From the IMG/VR virus record IMGVR_UViG_3300045988_031260: DNA of 42,825 nt; one strand, written 5' to 3'. Shown piece by piece: positions 137-42,649 of this stretch; position 1 is the first letter of the stretch, and each line of letters starts with the position of its first letter. Origin of the DNA: a virus. The position numbers were made by a program, and so were the translations under genes. The notes under the pieces were generated by a model that saw only the letters and a list, made by a program, of their open reading frames with translations, did no database searches and was not told the origin of the DNA.

Positions 137-1231
137 TTACTTTTTATTTGTTAGTAACGTGTTAGTAACAGCATCCACAAGTGTCTGCGCGTCGATGTGC
201 GTATATATGTTTGCGGTGGTGGAATAATCGGCGTGTCCGAGTATTTTTTGGAGCATTTCCGGGGGCAATCCCTCTTTTACCGCCCGGGACGCGTATGTGT
301 GGCGTGTGGCGTGCGGGGTCTTTCGCACAATACCCAGCCTGTCAAGGAGCGGGTAAAAATCACGCCTGCGGAAGTTTGCTGGGACTTTTTGCCCATCGTA
401 GCCGGATAACAGTAGCTCCCCCGTTGCTTGCTTCGCAAAGTAGGCAAAGTATTGTTTCCCCTCCGGTCGAATGGGGATAATTCGGTTTCTGCCTGCTTCG
501 GTTTTCTCCCCGCCTACAACATAGTCTCCGTGATAGTCTGCCAGAGGTAGGGAAAACAATTCCCCGATACGCATACCCGTTGCCAGCAGCATCAAGACAA
601 TTTTTGCCGAATCGCTGTTATCGGATTCCAATTTACGGATATCTTCCACCGTGAAGATGTCCTTTTCTTTTTTGACATTTTCCGGCAAGCGCACAAACTT
701 AGCAAAATTTGTCGTGCATATTTCCTCCCGGATGGCCCAGTTCGACATCTGCGTTATGAGCTGCTTGTACTTATTCACGGTGGAATGGCTCTTGCTCATG
801 TGCGGGTCAAGTGCGGCCTGAAAGTCTGCGGTGCGAAGGTCACGGAACTTTCTGCTATGCAATGGAGCAAATACCTTGTAAGCCGTGTTATAGGAATCAA
901 TCCCCTGCTTGCCGATCTCCTTGTAATGCTCCTCTTTCCACGCATCAAAGACTTCAGCAAAGGTCATGTTGTACCTATCCGTTAAACTCTTGCCGTTCAG
1001 CCGCTCCAAAGCGTCCAGAGCGTCTGTCTTGCGCTCATAGTACCCAATGACCACCTTGTTCTTTGCAGCCACCCACGGCTTTTTCCTGCGGCCTGACAGC
1101 TTGTATACCGTACCGGTTCCGTTCGCTCTTTTTAGTGCCTTGCGCTTTTCTGCCAACTGCTTTTTGCCGCACAAATGGCAGTAAATAGCATTTTCGGCAA
1201 GCTCTGCCCCGCATTTCATGCAATTTTCCAT
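137..1231 (-). CDS. int: Tyrosine recombinase / phage integrase with N-terminal zinc ribbon
   Basis: C-terminal HATRHTYAS...LGHADYSTTANIYTH matches the R..HxxR..Y catalytic signature. N-terminal CMKCG..CHLCG. Start placed at ATG 1231 with AAGGGG upstream; the ORF track extends to 1276. Confidence 0.92.
   Translation of the reverse strand: MENCMKCGAELAENAIYCHLCGKKQLAEKRKALKRANGTGTVYKLSGRRKKPWVAAKNKVVIGYYERKTDALDALERLNGKSLTDRYNMTFAEVFDAWKEEHYKEIGKQGIDSYNTAYKVFAPLHSRKFRDLRTADFQAALDPHMSKSHSTVNKYKQLITQMSNWAIREEICTTNFAKFVRLPENVKKEKDIFTVEDIRKLESDNSDSAKIVLMLLATGMRIGELFSLPLADYHGDYVVGGEKTEAGRNRIIPIRPEGKQYFAYFAKQATGELLLSGYDGQKVPANFRRRDFYPLLDRLGIVRKTPHATRHTYASRAVKEGLPPEMLQKILGHADYSTTANIYTHIDAQTLVDAVTNTLLTNKK
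147..169 (+). repeat. Two tandem GTTAGTAAC copies 11 bp apart; candidate integrase arm-type sites (P' arm)
   Basis: GTTAGTAAC at 150-158 and 161-169. TTTGTTAGTAAC at 147-158 recurs at 42650-42661 on the other side of the core. Confidence 0.45.
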
Positions 1232-1235
1232 TGTA

Positions 1236-1790
1236 TCACCCCTTCGATTTGCGAACCATAGAAACGAGAACAGCAAGTGTAATGGCGCTGCTGGCTATCA
1301 GCACCGCAATAAGCACCCATGCAAACACGCTTGCAACCCCACCACGAATCAGGCCCATATTTGCCGTTTTGAAGTCGAGAAACACATACACCGCCAGTAG
1401 AAGCATAACAATTACAAGGGCGGATATGGTAACATATATAACCCGCTGCTGTGATTTGATTCTCTTGTGCTGCAGGTCGATGGTCTGGGCCATGCTTTCC
1501 ACATTGCCCTCCAGATGTGCCGCCTTTAACTCCGCTTCTCTGTTTTGCTGCATTTCTTCAAGCCGCTTTTCTGCAGGAACATCTTCTTCGATCCCGAAAT
1601 ATCTATCCAGCGATACCCCCAGTACAGCACAAATGTCACCGGCGTTGTACACGCTGGGCGATTTGGACGCTGTGGCGAAGAAATTGTTGATGGTGGAAAT
1701 GGAGATTCCGGTTTCGTCAGATAGCTTTTGCGTGGTGATTCCCTTCCTGATTTTTGCGTCCTTGCAAATGTCGCGTAGTGTCGGATTCAT
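1236..1790 (-). CDS. Membrane-anchored XRE-family HTH protein
   Basis: N-terminal HTH (ITTQKLSDETGISISTINNF), central coiled segment and two C-terminal hydrophobic helices. ATG 1790 preceded by GGGGGA. Confidence 0.75.
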   Translation of the reverse strand: MNPTLRDICKDAKIRKGITTQKLSDETGISISTINNFFATASKSPSVYNAGDICAVLGVSLDRYFGIEEDVPAEKRLEEMQQNREAELKAAHLEGNVESMAQTIDLQHKRIKSQQRVIYVTISALVIVMLLLAVYVFLDFKTANMGLIRGGVASVFAWVLIAVLIASSAITLAVLVSMVRKSKG

Positions 1791-2123
1791 GCATAATCCC
1801 CCTATGTGGGCAATAAGTGCCCTGAATTTGCCGTGCAAAAAATGATTAAAACCCCTTTATGGGATTGCACTGCCCGATAAAATCTTGATATGCTCACATT
1901 GCAGACGATAAACCGTTAGGCGATGCGTAGGCAAACCCTCCCTATCCGGTGCGGGGATGGGGAGGGTTAGAACAAAATTTCTATTTTTCTATTTTTGTTG
2001 CATATACCCGGGCAACAAACCGCAATCCGGCGCGTATAAGTGAAAACACTTTACTGGAGGATAGCAAAATGACAGAACCGCAAGCCGCCGCTTACATAGC
2101 GCAGCTAACCTATGATGAGAAAC

Positions 2124-2495
2124 TTACGCTTTTCGAGATGCTAAAATCCCTTGAACAAAATCGTCAACCCGACGCAACTCGTCCGGGGTTAACAGGACAA
2201 GCCGTTTAATCAGACCGGCATCCAAAATGCGCTCATCGATCTTGTCGGTGGGCGCTTTTTTTATGCCCGGATCATCCGTTTCGCCCTTTAGCCACTCCAC
2301 GGATACATTGTAAATGTCGGCAATCTGATGGAGTTTCTTTGTATAGGAAACGCTTGCCCCGTTCTCCCACATAGAAACAATAGAGCCATCATTATATCCT
2401 ATGCTTTTGGCAAACTTTACCTTTGCCCCGTGAGCGTATTTCCCGTTCTTGCCTTTAGGGATAAGGCTTAATATTCTTTCCAGCACAATATCCAT
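2124..2495 (-). CDS. CI-like repressor (XRE/HTH_3 family)
   Basis: HTH FAKSIGYNDGSIVSMWENG. Divergent from the cro-like gene. ATG at 2495; the ORF track uses TTG 2501. Confidence 0.8.
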   Translation of the reverse strand: MDIVLERILSLIPKGKNGKYAHGAKVKFAKSIGYNDGSIVSMWENGASVSYTKKLHQIADIYNVSVEWLKGETDDPGIKKAPTDKIDERILDAGLIKRLVLLTPDELRRVDDFVQGILASRKA

Positions 2496-2537
2496 ATTCA
2501 AAACCTAAAATTTGTCAGATTTGCCGAAAGTTAAATT

Positions 2538-2567
2538 TCTTCAAGTTTACTATTGCAATCTTGAAGA
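2538..2567. promoter_or_regulatory. Candidate operator dyad overlapping weak -35/-10-like hexamers
   Basis: TCTTCAAG (2538-2545) and CTTGAAGA (2560-2567) form an 8-bp inverted repeat with a 14-bp spacer. TTTACT-17-TATGAG and TTGCAA-17-TATCTT overlap it on the + strand. Confidence 0.35.
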
Positions 2568-2743
2568 TTATGAGGTATCTTTATATCAGGCCCACCGGAA
2601 AAGGGTACAAAAACACCAGCCCCCACGAAAGCGGCTTTTAACAATTTCTTTTGGCGAAGGTATTGTACCGCAGTTTTTGTGGAGTGTCAAGTGTGAAACC
2701 TCATGAATATGAGTTTTCGGTGGGCGTTGACTGCGGCGGGGAT

Positions 2744-2776
2744 AGAAAAACCGTCTCGTGCGGTAACACGAGACGG
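2744..2776 (-). terminator. Intrinsic terminator, minus strand only
   Basis: 10-bp stem CCGTCTCGTG/CACGAGACGG (2751-2760/2767-2776) followed on the minus strand by TTTTT (2750-2746). Confidence 0.75.
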
Positions 2777-2861
2777 CGGGGTGCAGGAGTTTCCCCTCCC
2801 CACCTCCGCACCGGGCGGGGAGGGGATTTAACAGCAAGAATCGCTGTCTTTGCACTCCTGC
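2746..2861 (-). ncRNA. Candidate ~115-nt structured small RNA in the immunity region
   Basis: Bounded by the promoter above and the terminator below. A 9-bp helix (2782-2790/2854-2862) closes two hairpins: 2793-2801/2817-2825 and 2831-2835/2843-2847. No RBS-led ORF. Confidence 0.55.
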
Positions 2862-2867
2862 AAGGCG

Positions 2868-2897
2868 ATTATAGCACGAACGCCCCGCCGCAGTCAA
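2868..2897 (-). promoter_or_regulatory. Near-consensus sigma-70-type promoter firing leftward
   Basis: The minus strand reads TTGACT (2897-2892), an 18-nt spacer ending TGc, then TATAAT (2873-2868). This is an extended -10 configuration. Confidence 0.7.
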
Positions 2898-2928
2898 TGA
2901 AAACTCACACATAAGGAGGGAGCGCAAC

Positions 2929-3147
2929 TTGACATTGAGAGAAATGCGGGATAGAGCAAATCTTTCCTGCGTGCAGGTCGGCAAGAAGCTGTTTGTTGAC
3001 CAGTCCTGCGTAAGACATTGGGAATACGGAGACTGGGCGCCGGCACGGAAGTACTACAAGAAAATGGCGAAGCTGTACGGCGTGTCGGAGGAGGAGATCA
3101 AGGCTGCTGCGGAAGCTATCCGGGCAGCGAATAAGGAGGAACGATGA
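2929..3147 (+). CDS. Cro-like XRE-family HTH protein, first gene of the rightward early operon
   Basis: TTG start 8 nt after AAGGAGGG. HTH-like LSCVQVGKKLFVDQSCVRHWEYG. Confidence 0.75.
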   Translation: MTLREMRDRANLSCVQVGKKLFVDQSCVRHWEYGDWAPARKYYKKMAKLYGVSEEEIKAAAEAIRAANKEER

Positions 3148-3341
3148 TTAAGACGATGACGATGCAAGAGTGCATGGATCACCTTCGGGCGCATGGACTG
3201 AGCATTTCGCAAGACACGCTGTCGAACGGCCTGGAGCAGGGTGTGTACCCCTTCGGCGTGTGCATCAACGGAGGCAAGCGGCGGGTGTTTCAGATTTTCG
3301 CCCGGCTGCTGGACAAGTGGATCGAGGAGAGAGAGGAGTAA
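3144..3341 (+). CDS. Small DNA-binding protein, excisionase-like (putative)
   Basis: 65 aa, start overlaps the upstream stop, AGGAGGA RBS. Winged-helix-like pattern ending VFQIFARLLDKWIEE. Confidence 0.5.
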   Translation: MIKTMTMQECMDHLRAHGLSISQDTLSNGLEQGVYPFGVCINGGKRRVFQIFARLLDKWIEEREE

Positions 3342-3343
3342 AC

Positions 3344-3442
3344 ATGGGCGGATATACATTGACGCTGGTGATCATCGGCGCGGCTACGGTGGCGTGGATG
3401 TTCGTGAATCTGTTGGACAAGCTGGATAGACCAGGCAAGTAA
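3344..3442 (+). CDS. Small single-pass membrane protein (32 aa)
   Basis: ATG 3344 after GAGAGGAG. Hydrophobic core LTLVIIGAATVAWMFV. Confidence 0.4.
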   Translation: MGGYTLTLVIIGAATVAWMFVNLLDKLDRPGK

Positions 3443-3458
3443 ATAACAGGAGGGAAAG

Positions 3459-3860
3459 ATGATGAAAAGGTTTGCGGAAAACACATCAAGATCGGCGCAG
3501 AGATGCATGAAAGGTATTATCAACGCTGGCGTGCGCTTTGTAATGGAGCGTTGCGAGGACGCAACCGAGAAATATGCGTCCGGTGATAGTGGCAATGCGG
3601 CGGCGTCCGGTGTGAGGGGGGCAGCTGTCGCGTCCGGCTATCTCGGTTCTGCATCAGCGTCCGGCGACCAGTGCCTCGCGGTCGCATGGGGCATGGATAG
3701 CCGCGCCCGTGGCGCGATCGGATCGTACCTTGTCCTCTCCGAGTATGCCGAGGACGGCTCGATCGTCGACGCCCAGCTTGTTAAGGTTGATGGAGATCAG
3801 ATCAAGGCCGACACATGGTACAAGCTAAAAAACGGCGAGATTGTGGAGGTGGAGCGCTGA
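3459..3860 (+). CDS. Hypothetical protein with short A-S-G repeats
   Basis: AGGAGGGA RBS. Repeated ASG..A.ASG segments and a C-terminal beta-rich tail. Confidence 0.7.
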   Translation: MMKRFAENTSRSAQRCMKGIINAGVRFVMERCEDATEKYASGDSGNAAASGVRGAAVASGYLGSASASGDQCLAVAWGMDSRARGAIGSYLVLSEYAEDGSIVDAQLVKVDGDQIKADTWYKLKNGEIVEVER

Positions 3861-6725: not shown

Positions 6726-7428
6726 GCTGCTGCGACCGGATGAGATCGAGTGCCGGGTGCAGCGATGCACAGAAAAAGGCGTGAATTTGCTACTCTACAA
6801 AACAGCACGAACGGATGCTGATCTGCTGGACGAGACAGTAGGCGCAGACAAGTGGGAGAACGACTTTAAGCTGGTCGACGGCGTGCTCTACGGCGGACTT
6901 GGCGTAGATTACGGTAACGGCCTTGTGTGGAAGTGGGACGCCGGGACGGAGAGCAACACAGAAGCCGAGAAAGGCCGTGCGAGCGATGCTTTCAAGCGCG
7001 CAGGGTTCAAGCACGGCATTGGTCGAGAGCTTTACAGCGCCCCGTTTGTGTGGGTTCCCGCCGCGAACTGCGCCAAACTCAAGCAAGACCGGGGCGGGAG
7101 ATGGACATGCAATGACCGATTTGACGTGGCGTCCATTGAATATGATGCATCGGAGCATATTGTCGCTCTGACGATCACATCCGACGGGAATACGGTCTAC
7201 AGCTTCGGCGGTCGCGCAAAATCCGGACAAGCTACATCTGGGCGGAGCAAGCCGCAGGAGGAACCCGTTATCTGCGACGGCTGCAATACGCCGATTCGCC
7301 CCGCGAAAAAATCCGACGGAAGCGTTTGGAGCGTGAAAGATCTGCGCGAATACTCCAATCGGATGTACGGGCAGACGCTCTGTGCCAAATGCATTAACTC
7401 CATGCAGAGAGCTGAAGCCGCAGGATGA
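6712..7428 (+). CDS. Rad52/Sak-type single-strand annealing protein with C-terminal zinc ribbon
   Basis: EAEKGRASDAFKRAGFKHGIGRELYS motif typical of Rad52-like SSAPs. GTG 6712 lies 8 nt after GAGGAGG; the ORF track offers ATG 6685. Confidence 0.75.
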   Translation: MKRFRLLRPDEIECRVQRCTEKGVNLLLYKTARTDADLLDETVGADKWENDFKLVDGVLYGGLGVDYGNGLVWKWDAGTESNTEAEKGRASDAFKRAGFKHGIGRELYSAPFVWVPAANCAKLKQDRGGRWTCNDRFDVASIEYDASEHIVALTITSDGNTVYSFGGRAKSGQATSGRSKPQEEPVICDGCNTPIRPAKKSDGSVWSVKDLREYSNRMYGQTLCAKCINSMQRAEAAG

Positions 7429-8528: not shown

Positions 8529-8685
8529 TGCGGCAAAGATGCTGAGCATCAGCCTCGATACGCTGGATGATTTGCGGCGGGATGGCCTGCTGCAGGGGTA
8601 TCAGATCGCCAAAGGGAACCCGCGAGTATACTTTAAAGCCGTGGAGCTGGCGCAGTTCGCGGAGCGGCTGGAGGTGGCAGAATGA
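8500..8685 (+). CDS. Small HTH DNA-binding protein (MerR/excisionase-type)
   Basis: YTRTDAAKMLSISLDTLDDLRRDGLL. Confidence 0.65.
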   Translation: MEKILYTRTDAAKMLSISLDTLDDLRRDGLLQGYQIAKGNPRVYFKAVELAQFAERLEVAE

Positions 8686-10154: not shown

Positions 10155-10704
10155 TTTTGACTATGACATCGTGCAGAAAAAGCGTGTTGCAAGAGGGGCG
10201 TTTGCCCATGTGAACCGTAAGCGCGGGAAATGCAGATTGCCCAGTGATTACCTCACTGCAGCACAGAGGAAGGAGATGAACGAACCGGTGAAAACTTACA
10301 ACATTACGCGGCCTATGCCGTTGGAGGAATTCAAGGTGGTTCCGGACGATCTAAAGCGAGAATACCTGCGGAATATGCAGAGCTACGGAGCGGCGGCTAC
10401 ATACCTTGCAGACGAGATGGGCTGTTGCGGCGCAACCATCCGAGAATATGGAGAAAAGCTGGGAGTGCCGTTTGTGCGATGTGGTCGGAACTTTGATTTG
10501 TGGCAAAAGAAATTATCGGAGTGGCACACAGCCGAAGTGCCGGCAGAAGAAACGCCGGATAAGCAGACAGACGAAATTGAACCACCCGCAAGGGGTGCAG
10601 AGCTGCTACACGCACGGCTGACCATTCGGGGAGACCGGGAAAGTGCTTTGCAAAATCTGCGGCTGCTTATGCCGGAGGAATGCGAAATCACGGTTGAGTG
10701 GTGA
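10147..10704 (+). CDS. Hypothetical protein (185 aa)
   Basis: Coding texture and overlapping start. HTH-like TYLADEMGCCGATIREYGEKLG. Confidence 0.65.
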   Translation: MNDFDYDIVQKKRVARGAFAHVNRKRGKCRLPSDYLTAAQRKEMNEPVKTYNITRPMPLEEFKVVPDDLKREYLRNMQSYGAAATYLADEMGCCGATIREYGEKLGVPFVRCGRNFDLWQKKLSEWHTAEVPAEETPDKQTDEIEPPARGAELLHARLTIRGDRESALQNLRLLMPEECEITVEW

Positions 10705-17428: not shown

Positions 17429-17521
17429 GCAGGTGTAGCTCAGTCGGTAGAGCTTTATCGCACGAAGGGATATGCGATTGAATGCCCTTGGTCGCTGGTT
17501 CGAGTCCAGCCGCCTGCGCCA
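17429..17521 (+). tRNA. tRNA-like element with canonical acceptor, D and T arms and encoded CCA, but a non-canonical 40-nt central region (isotype undetermined)
   Basis: Acceptor GCAGGTG/CGCCTGC, D-arm GCTC-AGTCGGTA-GAGC, T-arm GCTGG-TTCGAGT-CCAGC and GCCA end. The region 17454-17493 does not fold as a 5-bp/7-nt anticodon arm. Confidence 0.6.
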
Positions 17522-21327: not shown

Positions 21328-21915
21328 ATGAAAGTCGGATATATCCGGGTGTCCACGGAGGAGCAGAACACAATCCGCCAAGAGGTAATTATGCAAGACC
21401 TTGGAGTTGAGCGTGTCTACATTGACAAGGCCAGCGGGAAAAGCCGTACAGGCAGGCCGCAGCTGGAGGCAATGATGGATTTCGTCCGAGAGGGCGATGT
21501 GGTCATTGTTGAGAGCATCAGCCGGTTTGCGAGAAGCACGAGGGACTTGTTGACGCTGGTAGAACAGCTTACAGACAAAGGTGTGGGTTTTGTATCGCAG
21601 AAGGAATCCATTGACACGAACACGCCACAGGGCAAGTTCATGCTTACGGTGTTTGGCGCAATGGCGGAGCTGGAACGGGAGCAGACCTTACAGCGGCAGA
21701 GAGAAGGAATTGCGGCTGCAAAAGCGGCTGGGAAGTACAAAGGCCGTCAGCCGATAGCAATCAGCGATGATCTGCTTAAAACGGTGCATGAGCAGTGGTA
21801 CAAGAACGAAATTACCACGGCCTATGCGGTTAAGCGGCTGGGTGTAAGCCGGAACACCTTTTACCGCCGGATGTGGGACTACGAGGATTCCGCAGGGATT
21901 CCGAGACGGCGCTGA
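21328..21915 (+). CDS. Small serine recombinase (resolvase/invertase family) with C-terminal HTH
   Basis: MKVGYIRVSTEEQ catalytic-serine motif, VIVESISRFARS, FGAMAELEREQ and C-terminal AVKRLGVSRNTFYRR. Confidence 0.92.
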   Translation: MKVGYIRVSTEEQNTIRQEVIMQDLGVERVYIDKASGKSRTGRPQLEAMMDFVREGDVVIVESISRFARSTRDLLTLVEQLTDKGVGFVSQKESIDTNTPQGKFMLTVFGAMAELEREQTLQRQREGIAAAKAAGKYKGRQPIAISDDLLKTVHEQWYKNEITTAYAVKRLGVSRNTFYRRMWDYEDSAGIPRRR

Positions 21916-21931: not shown

Positions 21932-22666
21932 ATGAAAAAAGCGAATCCTGCCAAGCAGAAGAAAATGATAATCGTATTAGCCATTCTGCTAATCGTTACC
22001 CTTGCTGTTGCATACAGCAACAAAGATGAGAGCCCTGACACATCGGGAGAGTTTGATGTAAGCGGCAGTGAATCTGTGGAAGAACTGTCGGACATTGTAA
22101 GTGATGGGATTGCAGAAAGGCTTGTTTCTTTCGGCATGACAGAAGATGAGGCACAGGCCGGCCGAGATATTCTGCGTATGTGTGGGGTGGACTCCATTTC
22201 CGGATGTGAGCCAACAGACGCATCGGCATCGGTTGATGGACTTGTGGTATTCCGCGAAGTAGTGGACAAGGACAGAGTGTTCTGGTTCACGGTAGACCAC
22301 CGAGAGATTATTTATGTATCCCTGAATGGAACGGACCTATATGACAAAGACAAGGGCGGGTTCTTGATGACGATAGACGATGTACATGTGCCGGAATCCT
22401 CTGTGCCATACAATGTTTATCGACAGTTGCAATACATGACAGAGACTGTCCTTGACCGATACTTTGTAAGCGCAAAATACTACGACGCATGGGGCATTGG
22501 CCGCGCGGATGAAAAATACATGGTGCAGTGCGAGGTATATGCGTCAAACGCGCTCAAGGTGAAATTCTGGGTTCCGGCAAAGGTCTGGTATGAAGATCAA
22601 GGAAATGGCGAATTTGTTGTTACAGGCGTACAGATTGATGGCACGCAGTACGAAGTGAAGCCGTAA
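21932..22666 (+). CDS. Membrane-anchored (signal-anchor) protein with a ~200-aa external domain
   Basis: Basic N-terminus MKKANPAKQKK followed by MIIVLAILLIVTLAVA. No lipobox cysteine. Confidence 0.75.
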   Translation: MKKANPAKQKKMIIVLAILLIVTLAVAYSNKDESPDTSGEFDVSGSESVEELSDIVSDGIAERLVSFGMTEDEAQAGRDILRMCGVDSISGCEPTDASASVDGLVVFREVVDKDRVFWFTVDHREIIYVSLNGTDLYDKDKGGFLMTIDDVHVPESSVPYNVYRQLQYMTETVLDRYFVSAKYYDAWGIGRADEKYMVQCEVYASNALKVKFWVPAKVWYEDQGNGEFVVTGVQIDGTQYEVKP

Positions 22667-22689: not shown

Positions 22690-22725
22690 ATGGACTACCG
22701 ATTATTCGGCAGTCCATTTTTTATT
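22690..22725 (+). terminator. Intrinsic terminator 13 nt upstream of the terL start
   Basis: 11-bp stem with one mismatch, ATGGACTACCG/CGGCAGTCCAT, followed by TTTTTATT. Confidence 0.75.
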
Positions 22726-22737
22726 GCAGGAGGACGA

Positions 22738-24390
22738 ATGGATTATCGGAAGATTGCGGAAAGCATCAAAAACCGCATAGAGAAAACGCATGACCGAGAA
22801 GCCTACAAGGATTTGCTGGCGTTGTGTATTGGGTACGAAGCGGAGGATTTTGCTGCGGCGCACCAGTTAAATTCAGAAGTCCGAAAGATGACATCCGAAG
22901 CGTTGCGTAACGGAAACCCGAAAGACGCGGAGCATTTCTACACGCTGCACAAGCAAGCTATGCTGTTTGACGCACCGCATGATTTCGATACCTTCCTGCT
23001 GTATGTGGAGATGGACAGAAAGCCGGAGAAGCGGTTTTATGCTCCACGCAGGCGGTATCTAAGACCTATTGTGCAGGGGTATCAAGATGTCCTTGACGGC
23101 AAGTTAAGGTTGCTGACCATTTCCTTGCCGAAAAGAGCCGGGAAAAGCCAGCTGGGGATAAATTTCATCAACATGATGTCCGGCAGAAACCCGGATAAAT
23201 CGTCCCTTATGGAAGGCACAGGCGATGACCTTGTGCGGAGCTTCTACAACGGATGTTTGGAGTATCTGCAAACGCCCAACGAGTATTTATTCTACGATGT
23301 GTTTCCGGATGCTCCCTTGGTGCAGACCAACGCAGACACGAAAATCATCAATCTGCGTTCAAAATCTCGATTCCCTACGGTCATGTGCCGGTCGATTGAC
23401 GCACGGCAGGTGGGTTTGTCGGAGGCAACCAATGTCCTGTACTTGGATGACTGCGTGGAGGGCAGAGAGGAAGCGAAAAACCGTCAACGGCTGGATGATA
23501 AGTGGGAAGTAATTTCCGGCGATATTTTAGGCCGTGCCATAGAGGGTACACCTATTGTGGCCACCGGGACGAGATACTCCCTATATGACCCCATAGGGCA
23601 TTTACAGGAAGAAGCACAAAAAGGCGGCTGGGCATGGAAAGCCATTGAAATCCCCGCCCTTGACCCAATTACAGACGAAAGCAATTATGAGTACGAGCGA
23701 GAGGGGAAAAAGGTTTTTACCACCGCTTATTTCCGTGAGCAAAGGGAGCTTCTGAGCGCGGAACAGTTTGAAAGCGAATTTCAGCAGCAGCCCTTTGAAG
23801 CAAAGGGGCTGCTTTTCAATAAGTCGGAGCTGAACTATTTCTTTGAACTGCCGGTAGATCGTGACCCGGATGCAATCATTGCCGTGGCAGACACCGCAGA
23901 AAGCGGAAAAGATAGCACGGCCATGCCTGTTGCGGCCTTATATGGAGAGGAAGTCTACATTGTGGATGTGGTGTACGATGATTCTCCCGCAGAGGTCACA
24001 AAGCCGGAATGCGCAAGGTGCCTGATTGATAACAAGGTGGGAGACGCACTGTTTGAATCCAATAACGCCGGTATGTATTTTGCGAGAGATGTTGCAGAAA
24101 TCGTCAAAAACGCCGGATTTAATACCAGCATACGGACAAAAAGGACGATTTCCAATAAGCAGACACGAATTGAGTTCGCATCGGATGGAATCAAGAAGAA
24201 TTTTTACTTCAAGCATCCGTCCACATACAAGCGAGGGTGTCAATACTGGGGATTCATGCAGGAAGTGACCACCTATGTAAGAAGCGGCAAAGTGGCGCAC
24301 GATGACGCGCCTGATTCCTTGTCGTTGCTGGAGAACGAAATCCGAAACCGCATCAGCGGCAAGATTGAGATATTCAAAAGACCGTTTTAA
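22738..24390 (+). CDS. terL: Terminase large subunit
   Basis: Walker A-like LPKRAGKS, Walker B VLYLDD, and nuclease-domain motifs AVADTAESGKDS and HDDAPDSL. Confidence 0.92.
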   Translation: MDYRKIAESIKNRIEKTHDREAYKDLLALCIGYEAEDFAAAHQLNSEVRKMTSEALRNGNPKDAEHFYTLHKQAMLFDAPHDFDTFLLYVEMDRKPEKRFYAPRRRYLRPIVQGYQDVLDGKLRLLTISLPKRAGKSQLGINFINMMSGRNPDKSSLMEGTGDDLVRSFYNGCLEYLQTPNEYLFYDVFPDAPLVQTNADTKIINLRSKSRFPTVMCRSIDARQVGLSEATNVLYLDDCVEGREEAKNRQRLDDKWEVISGDILGRAIEGTPIVATGTRYSLYDPIGHLQEEAQKGGWAWKAIEIPALDPITDESNYEYEREGKKVFTTAYFREQRELLSAEQFESEFQQQPFEAKGLLFNKSELNYFFELPVDRDPDAIIAVADTAESGKDSTAMPVAALYGEEVYIVDVVYDDSPAEVTKPECARCLIDNKVGDALFESNNAGMYFARDVAEIVKNAGFNTSIRTKRTISNKQTRIEFASDGIKKNFYFKHPSTYKRGCQYWGFMQEVTTYVRSGKVAHDDAPDSLSLLENEIRNRISGKIEIFKRPF

Positions 24391-35534: not shown

Positions 35535-37324
35535 TGGCTCTATCTGGTGCATTTACCGGCACGACCGGTAACCAGCATATCTTCCCTACAATCAAATGGA
35601 GCGCCGTGCAGAGCATCGACGGCAATTATTCCGACGTGACGGCGACGCTGTATTACAGCCGATCCAATAGCGGTTATACCACGAGCGGCACATGGTCGGG
35701 TGGTATCACGATCGACGGTCAGTGGACGGCAGGAAGCCGTTATATTGAGGTATCATATCAGTCGGAGACGCTTGCGATGAGCGCGACGGTACGCGTATAT
35801 CACGAAGCAGACGGGAGCCGCAACGTCACTATCTCCGCAACAGGCTATATCAGCGGTACAAGCCTGACCTCTACAGATATCTCGCAGACTGTGACGCTCG
35901 ACACGATCCCCCGCGCCACAACCGCCGTGGTCGGGAATCTTACCATGGGGGAATCTGGTACGATTACGCTCACTCCCGCAAGCCCCTCGTTTACACACAC
36001 GATCCGGTATTACTTTGGCGAAGCGTCCGGGGTAATTGCGACGAAAACATCATTCAAGTCCGTCAGCTGGACACCCCCAAAATCACTGGCCGAACAGATT
36101 CCGCGCGCAGCGGTAGGCATCGGCGCAATCCATTGCACGACGTATAACGGCAATACCGAGATAGGCACGATCTCCACCTCCGTAAAGATTACCGTATCTG
36201 ACGATATGATCCCCACAATTTCCGCCGTAACAATCGCAGAAACGGTTGCTGGGCTGGCCGATAAGTTTGGCGCGTATGTACAAAGCAAGTCAAGAGCGAA
36301 GGTAGATGTGACTGCAAGCGGGATCTATGGCAGCTCTATCGCGTCCTGCGAGGTAAGAGTTGCTGGCTTCCTCTATACCGGCACCTCCATTACATCGAAC
36401 ATGATTACGGCATCCGGTGACGTCCCCGTACAAGTCAAGGTGACAGACACCCGAGGGAGGTCTACAAGTAGCGCGAAAACCATCACGGTACTACCGTATA
36501 GTCCGCCGAAGATCAGCGAACTGTCTGCAAAGCGTATTGATACAACGGGTGCGGACAACGACGACGGTACACGCGTAGCCCTGACAATGGCCTATGCGAT
36601 TGCGTCGCTCGACGGAAAGAATGACCGCACCATCACCCTGTCGTATCGCAAAGAGACAGAAACAGAATTTGCGCAGATTTCCACCGGAACCGCCGAAATC
36701 AGCTATAACGATACGCTGCGACTGACGGACGCGCCGGAGATTTCCGCAGATGACGCGTATGTTATCCGCGTAGTCTTGCAGGATTACTTTACGTCCATTA
36801 CATCTGACGTGCGAGTGGAATCTACGTTTTCGCTGTTGGATTTTTACAAAGACGGTACGGGGGGTGCGGCAGGAAAAGCCGCTACACAGCCGAATTTGTT
36901 TGAGTTCGGTATGCCTGTAAGTTTCCAGCAGATCACCGTGAACGGAAAGACGCTGCTCGACTGGACGCATCCGGTAGGAAGCATCTATCAGTCCACAAAA
37001 TCGACCGATCCGGCTGATTTGTTCGGTGGAACATGGGAAGCCATTAATAACGTGTTTCTGCTGGCGGCTGGCACAATCTATCGCCCCGGTACGATTGGCG
37101 GTGAATCCGAGGTAACGCTGACAGCTGACGAAATCCCTGAGATCAAAATGAGCTATCAGTACACAGGCCAGAGCACCGTAATTGGTACGGACGCGATTCG
37201 GCTGTACGATGTCAACGGGCAACCGAATCAATACACTGGGCCACAAAGCAGCAACTGCGGTGGCAAGGCACACAACAACATGCCGCCGTATTTGGCTGTG
37301 TACACGTGGAAGCGCACAGCATGA
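35534..37324 (+). CDS. Tail fibre / receptor-binding protein
   Basis: C-terminal GGKAHNNMPPYLAVYTWKRT, typical of fibre C-termini. ATG 35534; the ORF track uses TTG 35531. Confidence 0.6.
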   Translation: MALSGAFTGTTGNQHIFPTIKWSAVQSIDGNYSDVTATLYYSRSNSGYTTSGTWSGGITIDGQWTAGSRYIEVSYQSETLAMSATVRVYHEADGSRNVTISATGYISGTSLTSTDISQTVTLDTIPRATTAVVGNLTMGESGTITLTPASPSFTHTIRYYFGEASGVIATKTSFKSVSWTPPKSLAEQIPRAAVGIGAIHCTTYNGNTEIGTISTSVKITVSDDMIPTISAVTIAETVAGLADKFGAYVQSKSRAKVDVTASGIYGSSIASCEVRVAGFLYTGTSITSNMITASGDVPVQVKVTDTRGRSTSSAKTITVLPYSPPKISELSAKRIDTTGADNDDGTRVALTMAYAIASLDGKNDRTITLSYRKETETEFAQISTGTAEISYNDTLRLTDAPEISADDAYVIRVVLQDYFTSITSDVRVESTFSLLDFYKDGTGGAAGKAATQPNLFEFGMPVSFQQITVNGKTLLDWTHPVGSIYQSTKSTDPADLFGGTWEAINNVFLLAAGTIYRPGTIGGESEVTLTADEIPEIKMSYQYTGQSTVIGTDAIRLYDVNGQPNQYTGPQSSNCGGKAHNNMPPYLAVYTWKRTA

Positions 37325-42305: not shown

Positions 42306-42614
42306 ATGAAACTGATCGAAAAGCTCTCTGAAATGGTCGAGGAGGAAATCGGCGATGCAAAGAAGTACGCAAAGTGCGCGCTGAAGTACAAAGACGCCGA
42401 CCCCACCCTTGCAAAGCTGTTTTATGACCTTTCCACGGAGGAAATGCGCCACATGGATTTGCTACACGGGGAAGTAATGCGGCAGATCGAGCAGTACCGA
42501 AAAACAAAAGGAGAGCCGCCCGAATCCATGCAGGCTGTTTATGATTACCTGCACGAGCGGCAGATCGAAGAAGCGAGAGAGGTTAAAACCTATCAGGCAA
42601 TGTATCGCGGTTGA
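42306..42614 (+). CDS. Small four-helix-bundle, ferritin/rubrerythrin-like protein
   Basis: EEEIGDAKKY and STEEMRHMDLLH (ExxH) motifs. GAGGT RBS. Confidence 0.5.
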   Translation: MKLIEKLSEMVEEEIGDAKKYAKCALKYKDADPTLAKLFYDLSTEEMRHMDLLHGEVMRQIEQYRKTKGEPPESMQAVYDYLHERQIEEAREVKTYQAMYRG

Positions 42615-42649
42615 TTTTGTGGACGAGCCTACTGGTAAAGTGATAGCAA

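Follow-up and report, generated by a model that had tools for sequence, protein, structure and literature searches.

Why should a small RNA gene between the repressor-like and cro-like genes of a phage be enclosed by a perfect inverted repeat that also supplies the -35 element of the gene's own promoter? This arrangement was noticed in the window, that is, the whole stretch of DNA that was analysed (42,825 nucleotides of the IMG/VR virus record IMGVR_UViG_3300045988_031260). A sequence-only reading of the window had suggested either an invertible switch or a pair of operators for DNA looping. The repeat itself was readily confirmed: the repeat finder recovered a perfect 15-bp inverted repeat bracketing the sRNA cassette, with two 15-nt arms that are 100% complementary, separated by 141 nt and located 156 bp apart from centre to centre. 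It sits in a 427-bp divergent region between the two regulatory genes.

2727-2741, no strand: left arm of the inverted repeat (TTGACTGCGGCGGGG), directly beyond the cassette terminator on the repressor side
2883-2897, no strand: right arm of the inverted repeat (CCCCGCCGCAGTCAA), the exact reverse complement of the left arm

The inverted repeat is far beyond chance expectation. Of all perfect inverted 15-mers in the window, the two arms are the sole pair whose loop is at most 200 bp, and no such pair turned up when 300 sequences were simulated from the window with a first-order Markov model. The pair is single, with no further copies of the arm at up to two mismatches in the 42.8-kb window, and internal dyad symmetry is absent from each 15-bp arm. 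The same arm pair is present in more than 170 independent contigs from IMG/VR and metagenomes. Among 63 distinct relatives, the per-position identity averages 98% for the left arm, 71% for the adjoining flank and 99% for the right arm; these values partly reflect ascertainment bias, and arm conservation also holds in the loci that were found via the repressor protein alone.

The segment between the arms contains the signals of a complete gene that is read leftward.

2897..2892, minus strand: -35 element (TTGACT) of the cassette promoter, contributed by the right arm together with the first 9 nt of the spacer
2876..2875 and 2873..2868, minus strand: extended -10 element of the cassette promoter (TG and TATAAT, respectively), inside the bracketed segment, from the promoter scan
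2744..2777, minus strand: intrinsic terminator of the cassette, a hairpin (2777..2750) followed by TTTTTC, from the terminator scan
2745..2861, minus strand: predicted sRNA of about 115 nt (cassette class A), with the ends placed from the promoter and the terminator

The bracketed unit is thus supported as a leftward sRNA transcription unit. The promoter scan (TTGACT, 18-nt spacer with TG, TATAAT; score 11/12) bears out the earlier claim that the right arm is the -35 element of a leftward promoter whose -10 element lies within the segment. The terminator is unidirectional, as also claimed: the T-run abuts the left arm and is found on the minus strand only, the plus strand being without one. 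Among relatives, the terminator stem shows compensatory changes. The class A sRNA is predicted to fold into a three-way structure plus the terminator, with folding z-scores of -8.6 and -9.7 compared to shuffled sequences; it is represented by 21 near-identical variants in relatives, with little covariation. The best Rfam matches of this sRNA are non-significant and point to no family, and FuFi-1 (RF02986) gave no match at E<=10 in the region 1800-3600 of the window. The predicted transcript starts downstream of the right arm and ends before the left arm, so that it contains neither. A role of the right arm as an anti-terminator, through pairing with CCCCGCCG in the 5' flank of the terminator, was rejected because this octamer is found in class A cassettes only.

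The cassette is embedded in a region with the organization of a lysis-lysogeny switch, which is best described from the integrase to the cro-like gene.

137-1276, minus strand: tyrosine integrase
1236-1838, minus strand: membrane-anchored HTH protein
2124..2501, minus strand: repressor-like HTH gene, transcribed from P_rep (PHROG transcriptional repressor/regulator families, E=1.6e-8)
2553..2581, plus strand: candidate early rightward promoter P_R (-35 TTGCAA at 2553-2558, 17-nt spacer, -10 TATCTT at 2576-2581)
2638..2666, plus strand: second candidate rightward promoter (TTAACA-17-TATTGT; promoter scan 9/12)
2662..2690, minus strand: repressor promoter P_rep (TTGACA 2690..2685, 17 nt, TACAAT 2667..2662; promoter scan 11/12)
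2695..2718, no strand: 24-bp quasi-palindrome/hairpin (GAAACCTCATGAATATGAGTTTTC) between the -35 element of P_rep and the left arm
2898..2909, plus strand: right flank (TGAAAACTCACA), repeating the 5' half of the hairpin at 2695-2718
2913-2919, plus strand: Shine-Dalgarno sequence of cro (AAGGAGG)
2929 (TTG) to 3147, plus strand: cro-like HTH gene (Pfam HTH_31, E=2.9e-9)

The repressor has 55 homologous loci in IMG/VR, and a cro protein identical to that of the window is listed in 1177 sample blocks according to an exact protein look-up. The P_rep pattern is kept in all 59 distinct relatives, with differing spacers. The candidate P_R scores 8/12, under the threshold of the promoter scan, and is assigned by comparison only: its hexamers and 17-nt spacing are kept in 54 of the 59 distinct relatives, with the spacer in 26 versions, and it is also found in relatives that lack the module. 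Its predicted start is near position 2588. P_rep and P_R appear to be convergent, facing each other, and the -10 element of the second rightward candidate overlaps that of P_rep. The start codon of cro follows the right arm after only 31 nt, which leaves no space for a promoter there. Given that both rightward candidates are located to the left of the module and that cro lacks its own promoter, the early transcript should cross the module in the antisense direction and carry both arms. The early lytic transcript is, accordingly to the positions of these promoters, the one RNA that is predicted to hold the two arms together.

Several elements around the arms vary among relatives. The stem of the 2695-2718 hairpin covaries (CTCAT/ATGAG versus CTCAC/GTGAG), and some relatives carry this element as its exact reverse complement; its 3' half (GAGTTTTC, 2711-2718) can pair with 2899-2906. 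The variation that depends on immunity type lies around 2530-2575, away from the arms. A second long-range repeat (2590-2601 and 2714-2725) was considered as another leader helix and rejected, since the minimum-energy fold favours a local 5' hairpin; in place of this repeat, the relatives with empty sites show a local hairpin (GTACC..GGTAC).

Relatives were collected from the loci of repressor homologues, an exact 15-mer scan of IMG/VR, a metagenome scan with the right arm and the cro flank, and an exact cro protein look-up. A scan of the genome collection with the bare 15-mer yielded only chance single matches among the matches listed. The arm-bearing contigs are mostly about 40 kb in length and come from human-gut samples. 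Among GenBank phages, there is no DNA match to the region 2500-2930; the closest terminase in that set, from an unannotated faecal phage, is 79% identical.

Comparison of these loci shows that the same, nearly invariant arms enclose at least five unrelated cassettes, over a range of 116-413 bp from arm to arm. The spacings form several classes (153-156, 200, 250-270, 323-342, 380-382, 393 and 407-413 bp), with unrelated interiors. The class A cassette is the sRNA of about 115 nt that is present in the window. Class C consists of a Shine-Dalgarno sequence and a 43-aa basic, Lys/Ser/Thr-rich ORF followed by the same terminator as in class A. Classes B, D and E are three versions of FuFi-1 (RF02986), each preceded by a mini-ORF; FuFi-1 scores 88-121 bits in these classes and in loci L081 and L097, against a gathering score of 59.6. 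The cassette of L156 contains a 65-aa ORF on the cro strand, and L304 and L306 hold additional cassette types. Neither the class C peptide nor the L156 ORF has a match to a Pfam family. Most cassette classes share the same plan, in which TGnTAnnnT is kept 17-18 nt from the TTGACT of the arm and a terminator lies beside the opposite arm. The exceptions are L304 and L452, where TATAAT is not preceded by TG, a decayed short derivative of class B, and L306, which is uncharacterised. A cro gene product 100% identical to that of the window adjoins cassettes of classes A, B and C and the decayed short B, which indicates that the exchange of cargo is recent and frequent. FuFi-1, in particular, is interchangeable in this slot with at least two other cargos. 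It is very likely that the repeat is a constant frame in which the cargo is exchanged and that the module does not invert.

The frame itself appears to have been acquired together with its cargo. In a set of relatives (L011, L020, L022-L025, L045-L050), the switch has the same layout, sharing P_R, P_rep, the hairpin and the cro arrangement with the window, but contains neither the arms nor a cassette; in these empty sites, the hairpin that corresponds to 2695-2718 lies 8-20 nt before the ribosome-binding site of cro. The existence of empty sites implies that the arms are part of an inserted module and not of the ancestral switch. Conversely, the module with its arms is also found in unrelated flanks (L081, L165, L097 and L380), being located, in L081, antisense between two genes of one operon. 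All module contexts that were found lie in the early or immunity region of phages.

An arm-independent scan of IMG/VR with a conserved FuFi-1 16-mer turned up modules that are bracketed differently. L452, L455 and L530 possess a perfect 24-bp repeat that is unrelated in sequence to the arms, occupies the same positions and includes its own -35 element. The L368 group has a bracket repeat of 11-13 bp overlapping the -35 element, and L394 has a 10-mer bracket repeat. In addition, among loci with the common arms, there are cases in which both arms have changed together, at position 12 (five loci), positions 11 and 15 (L043/L044), position 13 (L386) and position 15 (L380). The presence of unrelated repeats at the same positions, combined with the joint changes, indicates that complementarity, rather than sequence, is conserved. 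For position 12, both single-arm intermediates exist and are probably recombinants. The 24-bp repeat of L452, when used as a query, was found in three contigs only, all with the same spacing, so that no cargo exchange is visible in this case. About half of the distinct FuFi-1 loci are without a detectable bracket repeat, and in L467 a direct repeat of the promoter takes the place of the inverted bracket. Thus, the helix is not essential to such modules, and the bracket is a feature of some lineages. ORF calls of at least 80 aa were too noisy to classify the contexts of the repeat-less FuFi-1 modules, cro-like genes being shorter.

The best explanation of these observations as a whole, to which we give roughly even weight, is a moron-like RNA module whose arms pair in the read-through RNA. 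The unit has entered a family of temperate human-gut phages at a site between the repressor promoter and the ribosome-binding site of cro. Read leftward, it consists of the right arm (the -35 element and half of the spacer), the extended -10 element, the cargo RNA, the intrinsic terminator and the left arm. In the early transcript that reads through the module, the arms would pair as a G+C-rich helix of 15-17 bp and enclose the antisense copy of any cargo as a separate hairpin domain. This helix would bring the conserved upstream hairpin back beside the cro ribosome-binding site and might double as a processing stalk for a double-strand-specific (RNase III-type) nuclease. When the entire leader is folded in silico, every cassette class gives the arm helix, with a mean pair probability of 0.92-1.00, but a perfect, G+C-rich 15-bp complement pairs in any folding program, so that these predictions are not independent support. 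In the leader of the window, the predicted helix is extended by pairing of 2711-2718 with 2899-2906.

The RNA-helix mechanism of the arms, which includes read-through, pairing in vivo and processing, is a more tentative proposition and, in our estimate, falls somewhat short of an even chance. A helix of 15-17 bp is short for a classical RNase III site, and the joint arm changes could also be due to gene conversion or to a protein that binds the arms and co-evolves with them. An attempt to assign the pairing strand from wobble versus mismatch in imperfect arms was abandoned: the single-transition differences between arms would give about 10 G-U and about 5 A-C pairs in the rightward RNA, which is not significant; this tally neither points to one strand nor establishes that the arms matter as RNA at all.

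Among the alternatives, the one that fares best, although we consider it unlikely, is that a small, non-autonomous mobile module of the MITE/Correia type has the arms as its terminal inverted repeats, or that they are the scar of the insertion event; in either case, they would now merely mark the sites of cargo exchange. The empty sites and the movement of the arms with the module into unrelated flanks agree with this possibility. A promoter element within a terminal repeat has a precedent in the Correia elements (PMC2649163). Furthermore, in the deletion-type loci L056, L127 and L156, the 12-mer right flank also directly precedes the left arm, yielding an 11/12-bp direct repeat around the module (TGAAAACTCACA / TGA(T/A)A(A/T)CTCACA) that resembles a target-site duplication. 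However, this direct repeat is equally explicable as a duplicated promoter-upstream element, given that the -35 element that follows it is repeated as well, and there is no direct repeat at L081, L165, L380 or L452. The module is present as one copy per phage genome and occupies a constant niche, antisense in the early operon beside cro, and no transposase candidate was seen. Finally, if the arms were neutral scars, they would not be expected to stay complementary at 15/15 positions across more than 170 contigs with drifting flanks, or to change jointly.

Another alternative, which appears quite improbable, is that one protein recognizes both arms as a pair of DNA sites; candidates would be a host factor, the RNA polymerase sigma factor or a conserved protein of the phage. 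At the right arm, its binding would repress the cassette promoter, and at the left arm it would serve as a roadblock or anchor a loop. Both arms are very strictly conserved in sequence, the right arm overlies the -35 element and the spacer, which is a typical repressor position, and the joint changes would suit a pair of sites that tracks one protein. Nevertheless, the arms are independent of the types of both regulators that they adjoin: they stay constant while the N-terminal regions of the repressors (residues 1-84) range from 60 to 99% identity, and the cro proteins beside the same arms range from 100% identical to unrelated. Neither arm has internal dyad symmetry, and a third copy is absent from the genome. 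The spacing, over its entire range of 116-413 bp, has no common helical phase. The fractional turns at 156, 200, 268, 342, 381 and 410 bp are.86,.05,.5,.6,.3 and.05, respectively, and the classes include a series that differs by single base pairs (153, 154, 155 and 156 bp). Together with the occurrence in relatives of unrelated repeats, 10-24 bp in length, where the arms would be, these features also speak against the specific proposal of the sequence-only reading that the arms are paired operators for DNA looping.

The other proposal of that reading, inversion of the segment 2742-2882, can be assessed from the orientation of the module in its relatives. At the level of consensus assemblies, a single orientation is seen throughout approximately 176 contigs, comprising 73 from human-gut metagenomes, about 93 loci from IMG/VR and 10 others: the terminator is on the repressor side of the module and the -10 element on the cro side. 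Exact patterns for the two junctions of the inverted state had 0 matches in IMG/VR, and the terminator-side pattern, the sole junction searched in the metagenome collection, had 0 matches there; the native junctions were found 64 and 90 times in the viral loci and also in 73 metagenome contigs. The phage does encode a serine recombinase at 21328-21915, as had been noted, and Pfam (Resolvase, E=3.6e-44) and PHROG ('DNA invertase', E=6e-65) agree on its assignment to the invertase type. This gene lies 18 kb from the repeat, beside the terminase gene. Close homologues of the invertase are present in 48 contigs, a set that lacks at least 15 of the near-complete contigs (39-46 kb) with arms; in two arm-bearing contigs, the match is limited to a 147-nt gene remnant. 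Invertase sites of the Hin/Gin type are dyad-symmetric and 26 bp long, in contrast to the arms, which are non-palindromic 15-mers. Hence, although the promoter-bearing segment between the inverted repeats has the size of a typical inverton and the joint arm changes could stem from exchange between the arms, it is highly improbable that the segment inverts, perhaps by means of this invertase, to direct the promoter toward cro and the terminator into the cro transcript.

With the interpretation of this locus as a phase-variable phage switch removed, what replaces it is a testable architecture in a common phage group. The cargo-slot architecture is coherent, was not found described in a limited literature search and belongs to a very common group of gut phages. 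A broader possibility, rather doubtful at this stage, is that the frame is a previously undescribed plug-in slot for small structured RNAs, which would be produced in sense in the lysogen and, on induction, in antisense within an arm-closed hairpin of the cro leader, so that pairing of sense with antisense RNA, and cleavage at the arm helix, would couple the cargo to the lytic decision. If true, this would be the first functional context for the orphan FuFi-1 RNA. In any case, FuFi-1 now has a defined position, between the repressor promoter and cro, with its own promoter and antisense to the early transcript, and its function thereby becomes approachable by ordinary phage genetics. The locus is also a natural example of a phage that tolerates variable inserts within an essential leader.

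Several known systems share some of these features. Invertible promoter switches (fimS, Bacteroides invertons and Hin/Gin) resemble the module in that repeats flank a promoter-bearing segment of 140-400 bp and the genome contains a gene for a serine invertase. They differ in that the module is found in one orientation (about 176 assemblies) and the recombinase gene is not adjacent to it and is often missing from arm-bearing relatives. Moreover, because the -35 element is inside the repeat of the module, inverting the segment would not turn the promoter off but would recreate it.

Structured RNA regions enclosed by long-range complementary flanks within a longer transcript are familiar from the processing stalks of rRNA operons, and non-contiguous operons contain an embedded gene of opposite orientation. 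The module combines both traits, with long-range flanks around a structured RNA and an oppositely oriented unit within an operon. Unlike in the processing stalks, the enclosed RNA is the antisense copy, and the sense RNA comes from its own promoter and lacks the 5' arm.

Coliphages 186 and P2 have convergent promoters in their lysis-lysogeny switches, and phage immunity regions encode antisense RNAs, namely OOP of lambda, sar of P22 and c4 of P1. Similarly, the lytic and lysogenic promoters of the window appear to face each other, and part of the predicted early rightward transcript is the full complement of the small leftward RNA. In contrast to these systems, the antisense RNA is an exchangeable cargo, the overlap is in the untranslated leader and is enclosed by an inverted repeat, and one of the cargos, FuFi-1, is a conserved structured RNA that also occurs elsewhere.

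Correia elements of Neisseria carry a promoter element in the terminal repeat, and their co-transcripts with a neighbouring gene can fold into an RNA hairpin that is bound or cut by RNase III (PMC2649163). Like these elements and other MITEs, the module is short and bounded by inverted repeats, has a promoter element in the terminal repeat and might form a hairpin in the co-transcript. The differences are substantial: the module is single-copy in a constant niche whereas Correia elements occur as hundreds of dispersed copies; it has no TA target duplication; its arms are 15 bp long compared to 26 bp; and it contains a complete sRNA gene with a terminator.

For FuFi-1, the original paper (PMC5737381) reports no function and no self-cleavage and describes a 3' terminator for the motif; its excerpted text makes no mention of a promoter, a flanking repeat or a position in a phage switch. 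The relatives hold bona fide FuFi-1 RNAs with the 3' terminator in exactly this slot, whereas the cassette of the window does not match FuFi-1.

A further parallel is with the morons of temperate phages, which are autonomous units of promoter, gene and terminator located between conserved genes. As in morons, the module has its own sigma-70-type promoter and intrinsic terminator, is located between genes that are adjacent in relatives with empty sites and is variable in its presence. It adjoins the repressor gene in the same direction of transcription, and its cargo varies among near-identical phages; this position and direction suggest that it is probably expressed from the prophage. In contrast to typical morons, the cargo is a small RNA and not a protein gene, the frame of the module is a perfect inverted repeat overlapping the -35 element of the module itself, and the module lies antisense within the early lytic leader and not between operons. 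With its own promoter and terminator and its variable presence, the unit nevertheless qualifies as a moron.

At the start of every FuFi-1 cassette of classes B, D and E (L010, L004, L076, L093 and L108 among the related loci), there is a conserved mini-ORF with a strong Shine-Dalgarno sequence. The mini-ORF is located immediately downstream of the cassette promoter and encodes a peptide of 16-22 aa, MT(K/N)LL(T/I)LPVP...; in L004, it contains an in-frame 12-nt duplication. In the larger cassettes of L081 and L100, the mini-ORF lies upstream of the FuFi-1 Rfam match. The phage contig L081, which carries one of these FuFi-1 modules, also encodes a skipping-rope RNA (RF02924, 58.8 bits) at 10560-10630; like FuFi-1, this RNA is an orphan motif of the 2017 study (PMC5737381).

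Other ORFs are found in the slot as well. In class C (L005 and L165), a Shine-Dalgarno sequence is present along with a Lys/Ser/Thr-rich ORF of 43 aa (MPKNSVRTSKRVASK...SNRRSK) that yielded no Pfam match. The ORF ends with a stop codon in L165; the L005 type has lost the stop, so that the frame continues through the terminator. In L156, the slot (776-1113, between the arms) contains an ORF of 65 aa (MFPLSEEARSMLRKV...) that is read from the cro strand, and it retains the leftward -10 element and the terminator, so that the predicted leftward RNA would be antisense to the coding sequence.

Some of the modules are decayed. In the class A metagenome contig L324, the cassette terminator was removed by a deletion whose endpoints are direct repeats of CCCCGCCG, located in the 3' part of the sRNA and in the left arm. 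The FuFi-1 cassettes of three further loci (L032, L109 and L520) contain an internal deletion that removed the -10 element. The arms are still present in all these modules.

In the empty-site relatives L029 and L052, the region from the P_R -10 element to the repressor promoter carries an insert of about 370 bp (locus coordinates approximately 2400-2800) in place of the conserved leader block. This insert looks structured and matched no Rfam family at E<=0.1.

Beside the cassette, there is a 24-bp quasi-palindrome, GAAACCTCATGAATATGAGTTTTC (2695-2718 in the window), found at the equivalent position in L010, L032 and L002. Some relatives have this element as its exact reverse complement; in others, its stem shows covariation, CTCAT/ATGAG vs CTCAC/GTGAG. 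A small hairpin-mediated inversion has thus been fixed repeatedly next to a cassette that itself is found in a single orientation in the assembled contigs.

Elsewhere in the window, the following features are found, including its two long inverted pairs besides the cassette arms:

7061-7075 and 8648-8662, long inverted pair, perfect, 15 bp
17429-17521, tRNA-Val gene (anticodon CAC), mid-genome
21328-21915, DNA-invertase-type serine recombinase
21932-22666, 244-aa gene directly downstream of the recombinase
22690-24390, terminase large subunit, after the 244-aa gene
36991-37007 and 42608-42624, long inverted pair, 16/17 match

The serine recombinase is distant from any tail-fibre gene of the window.

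The public assembly index lists the exact cro-like protein (window 2929-3147) in 1177 sample blocks, which come without exception from gut-type metagenomes; therefore, this phage group is very prevalent, though uncultured. The closest GenBank match of its terminase, at 79%, is to an unannotated faecal phage.
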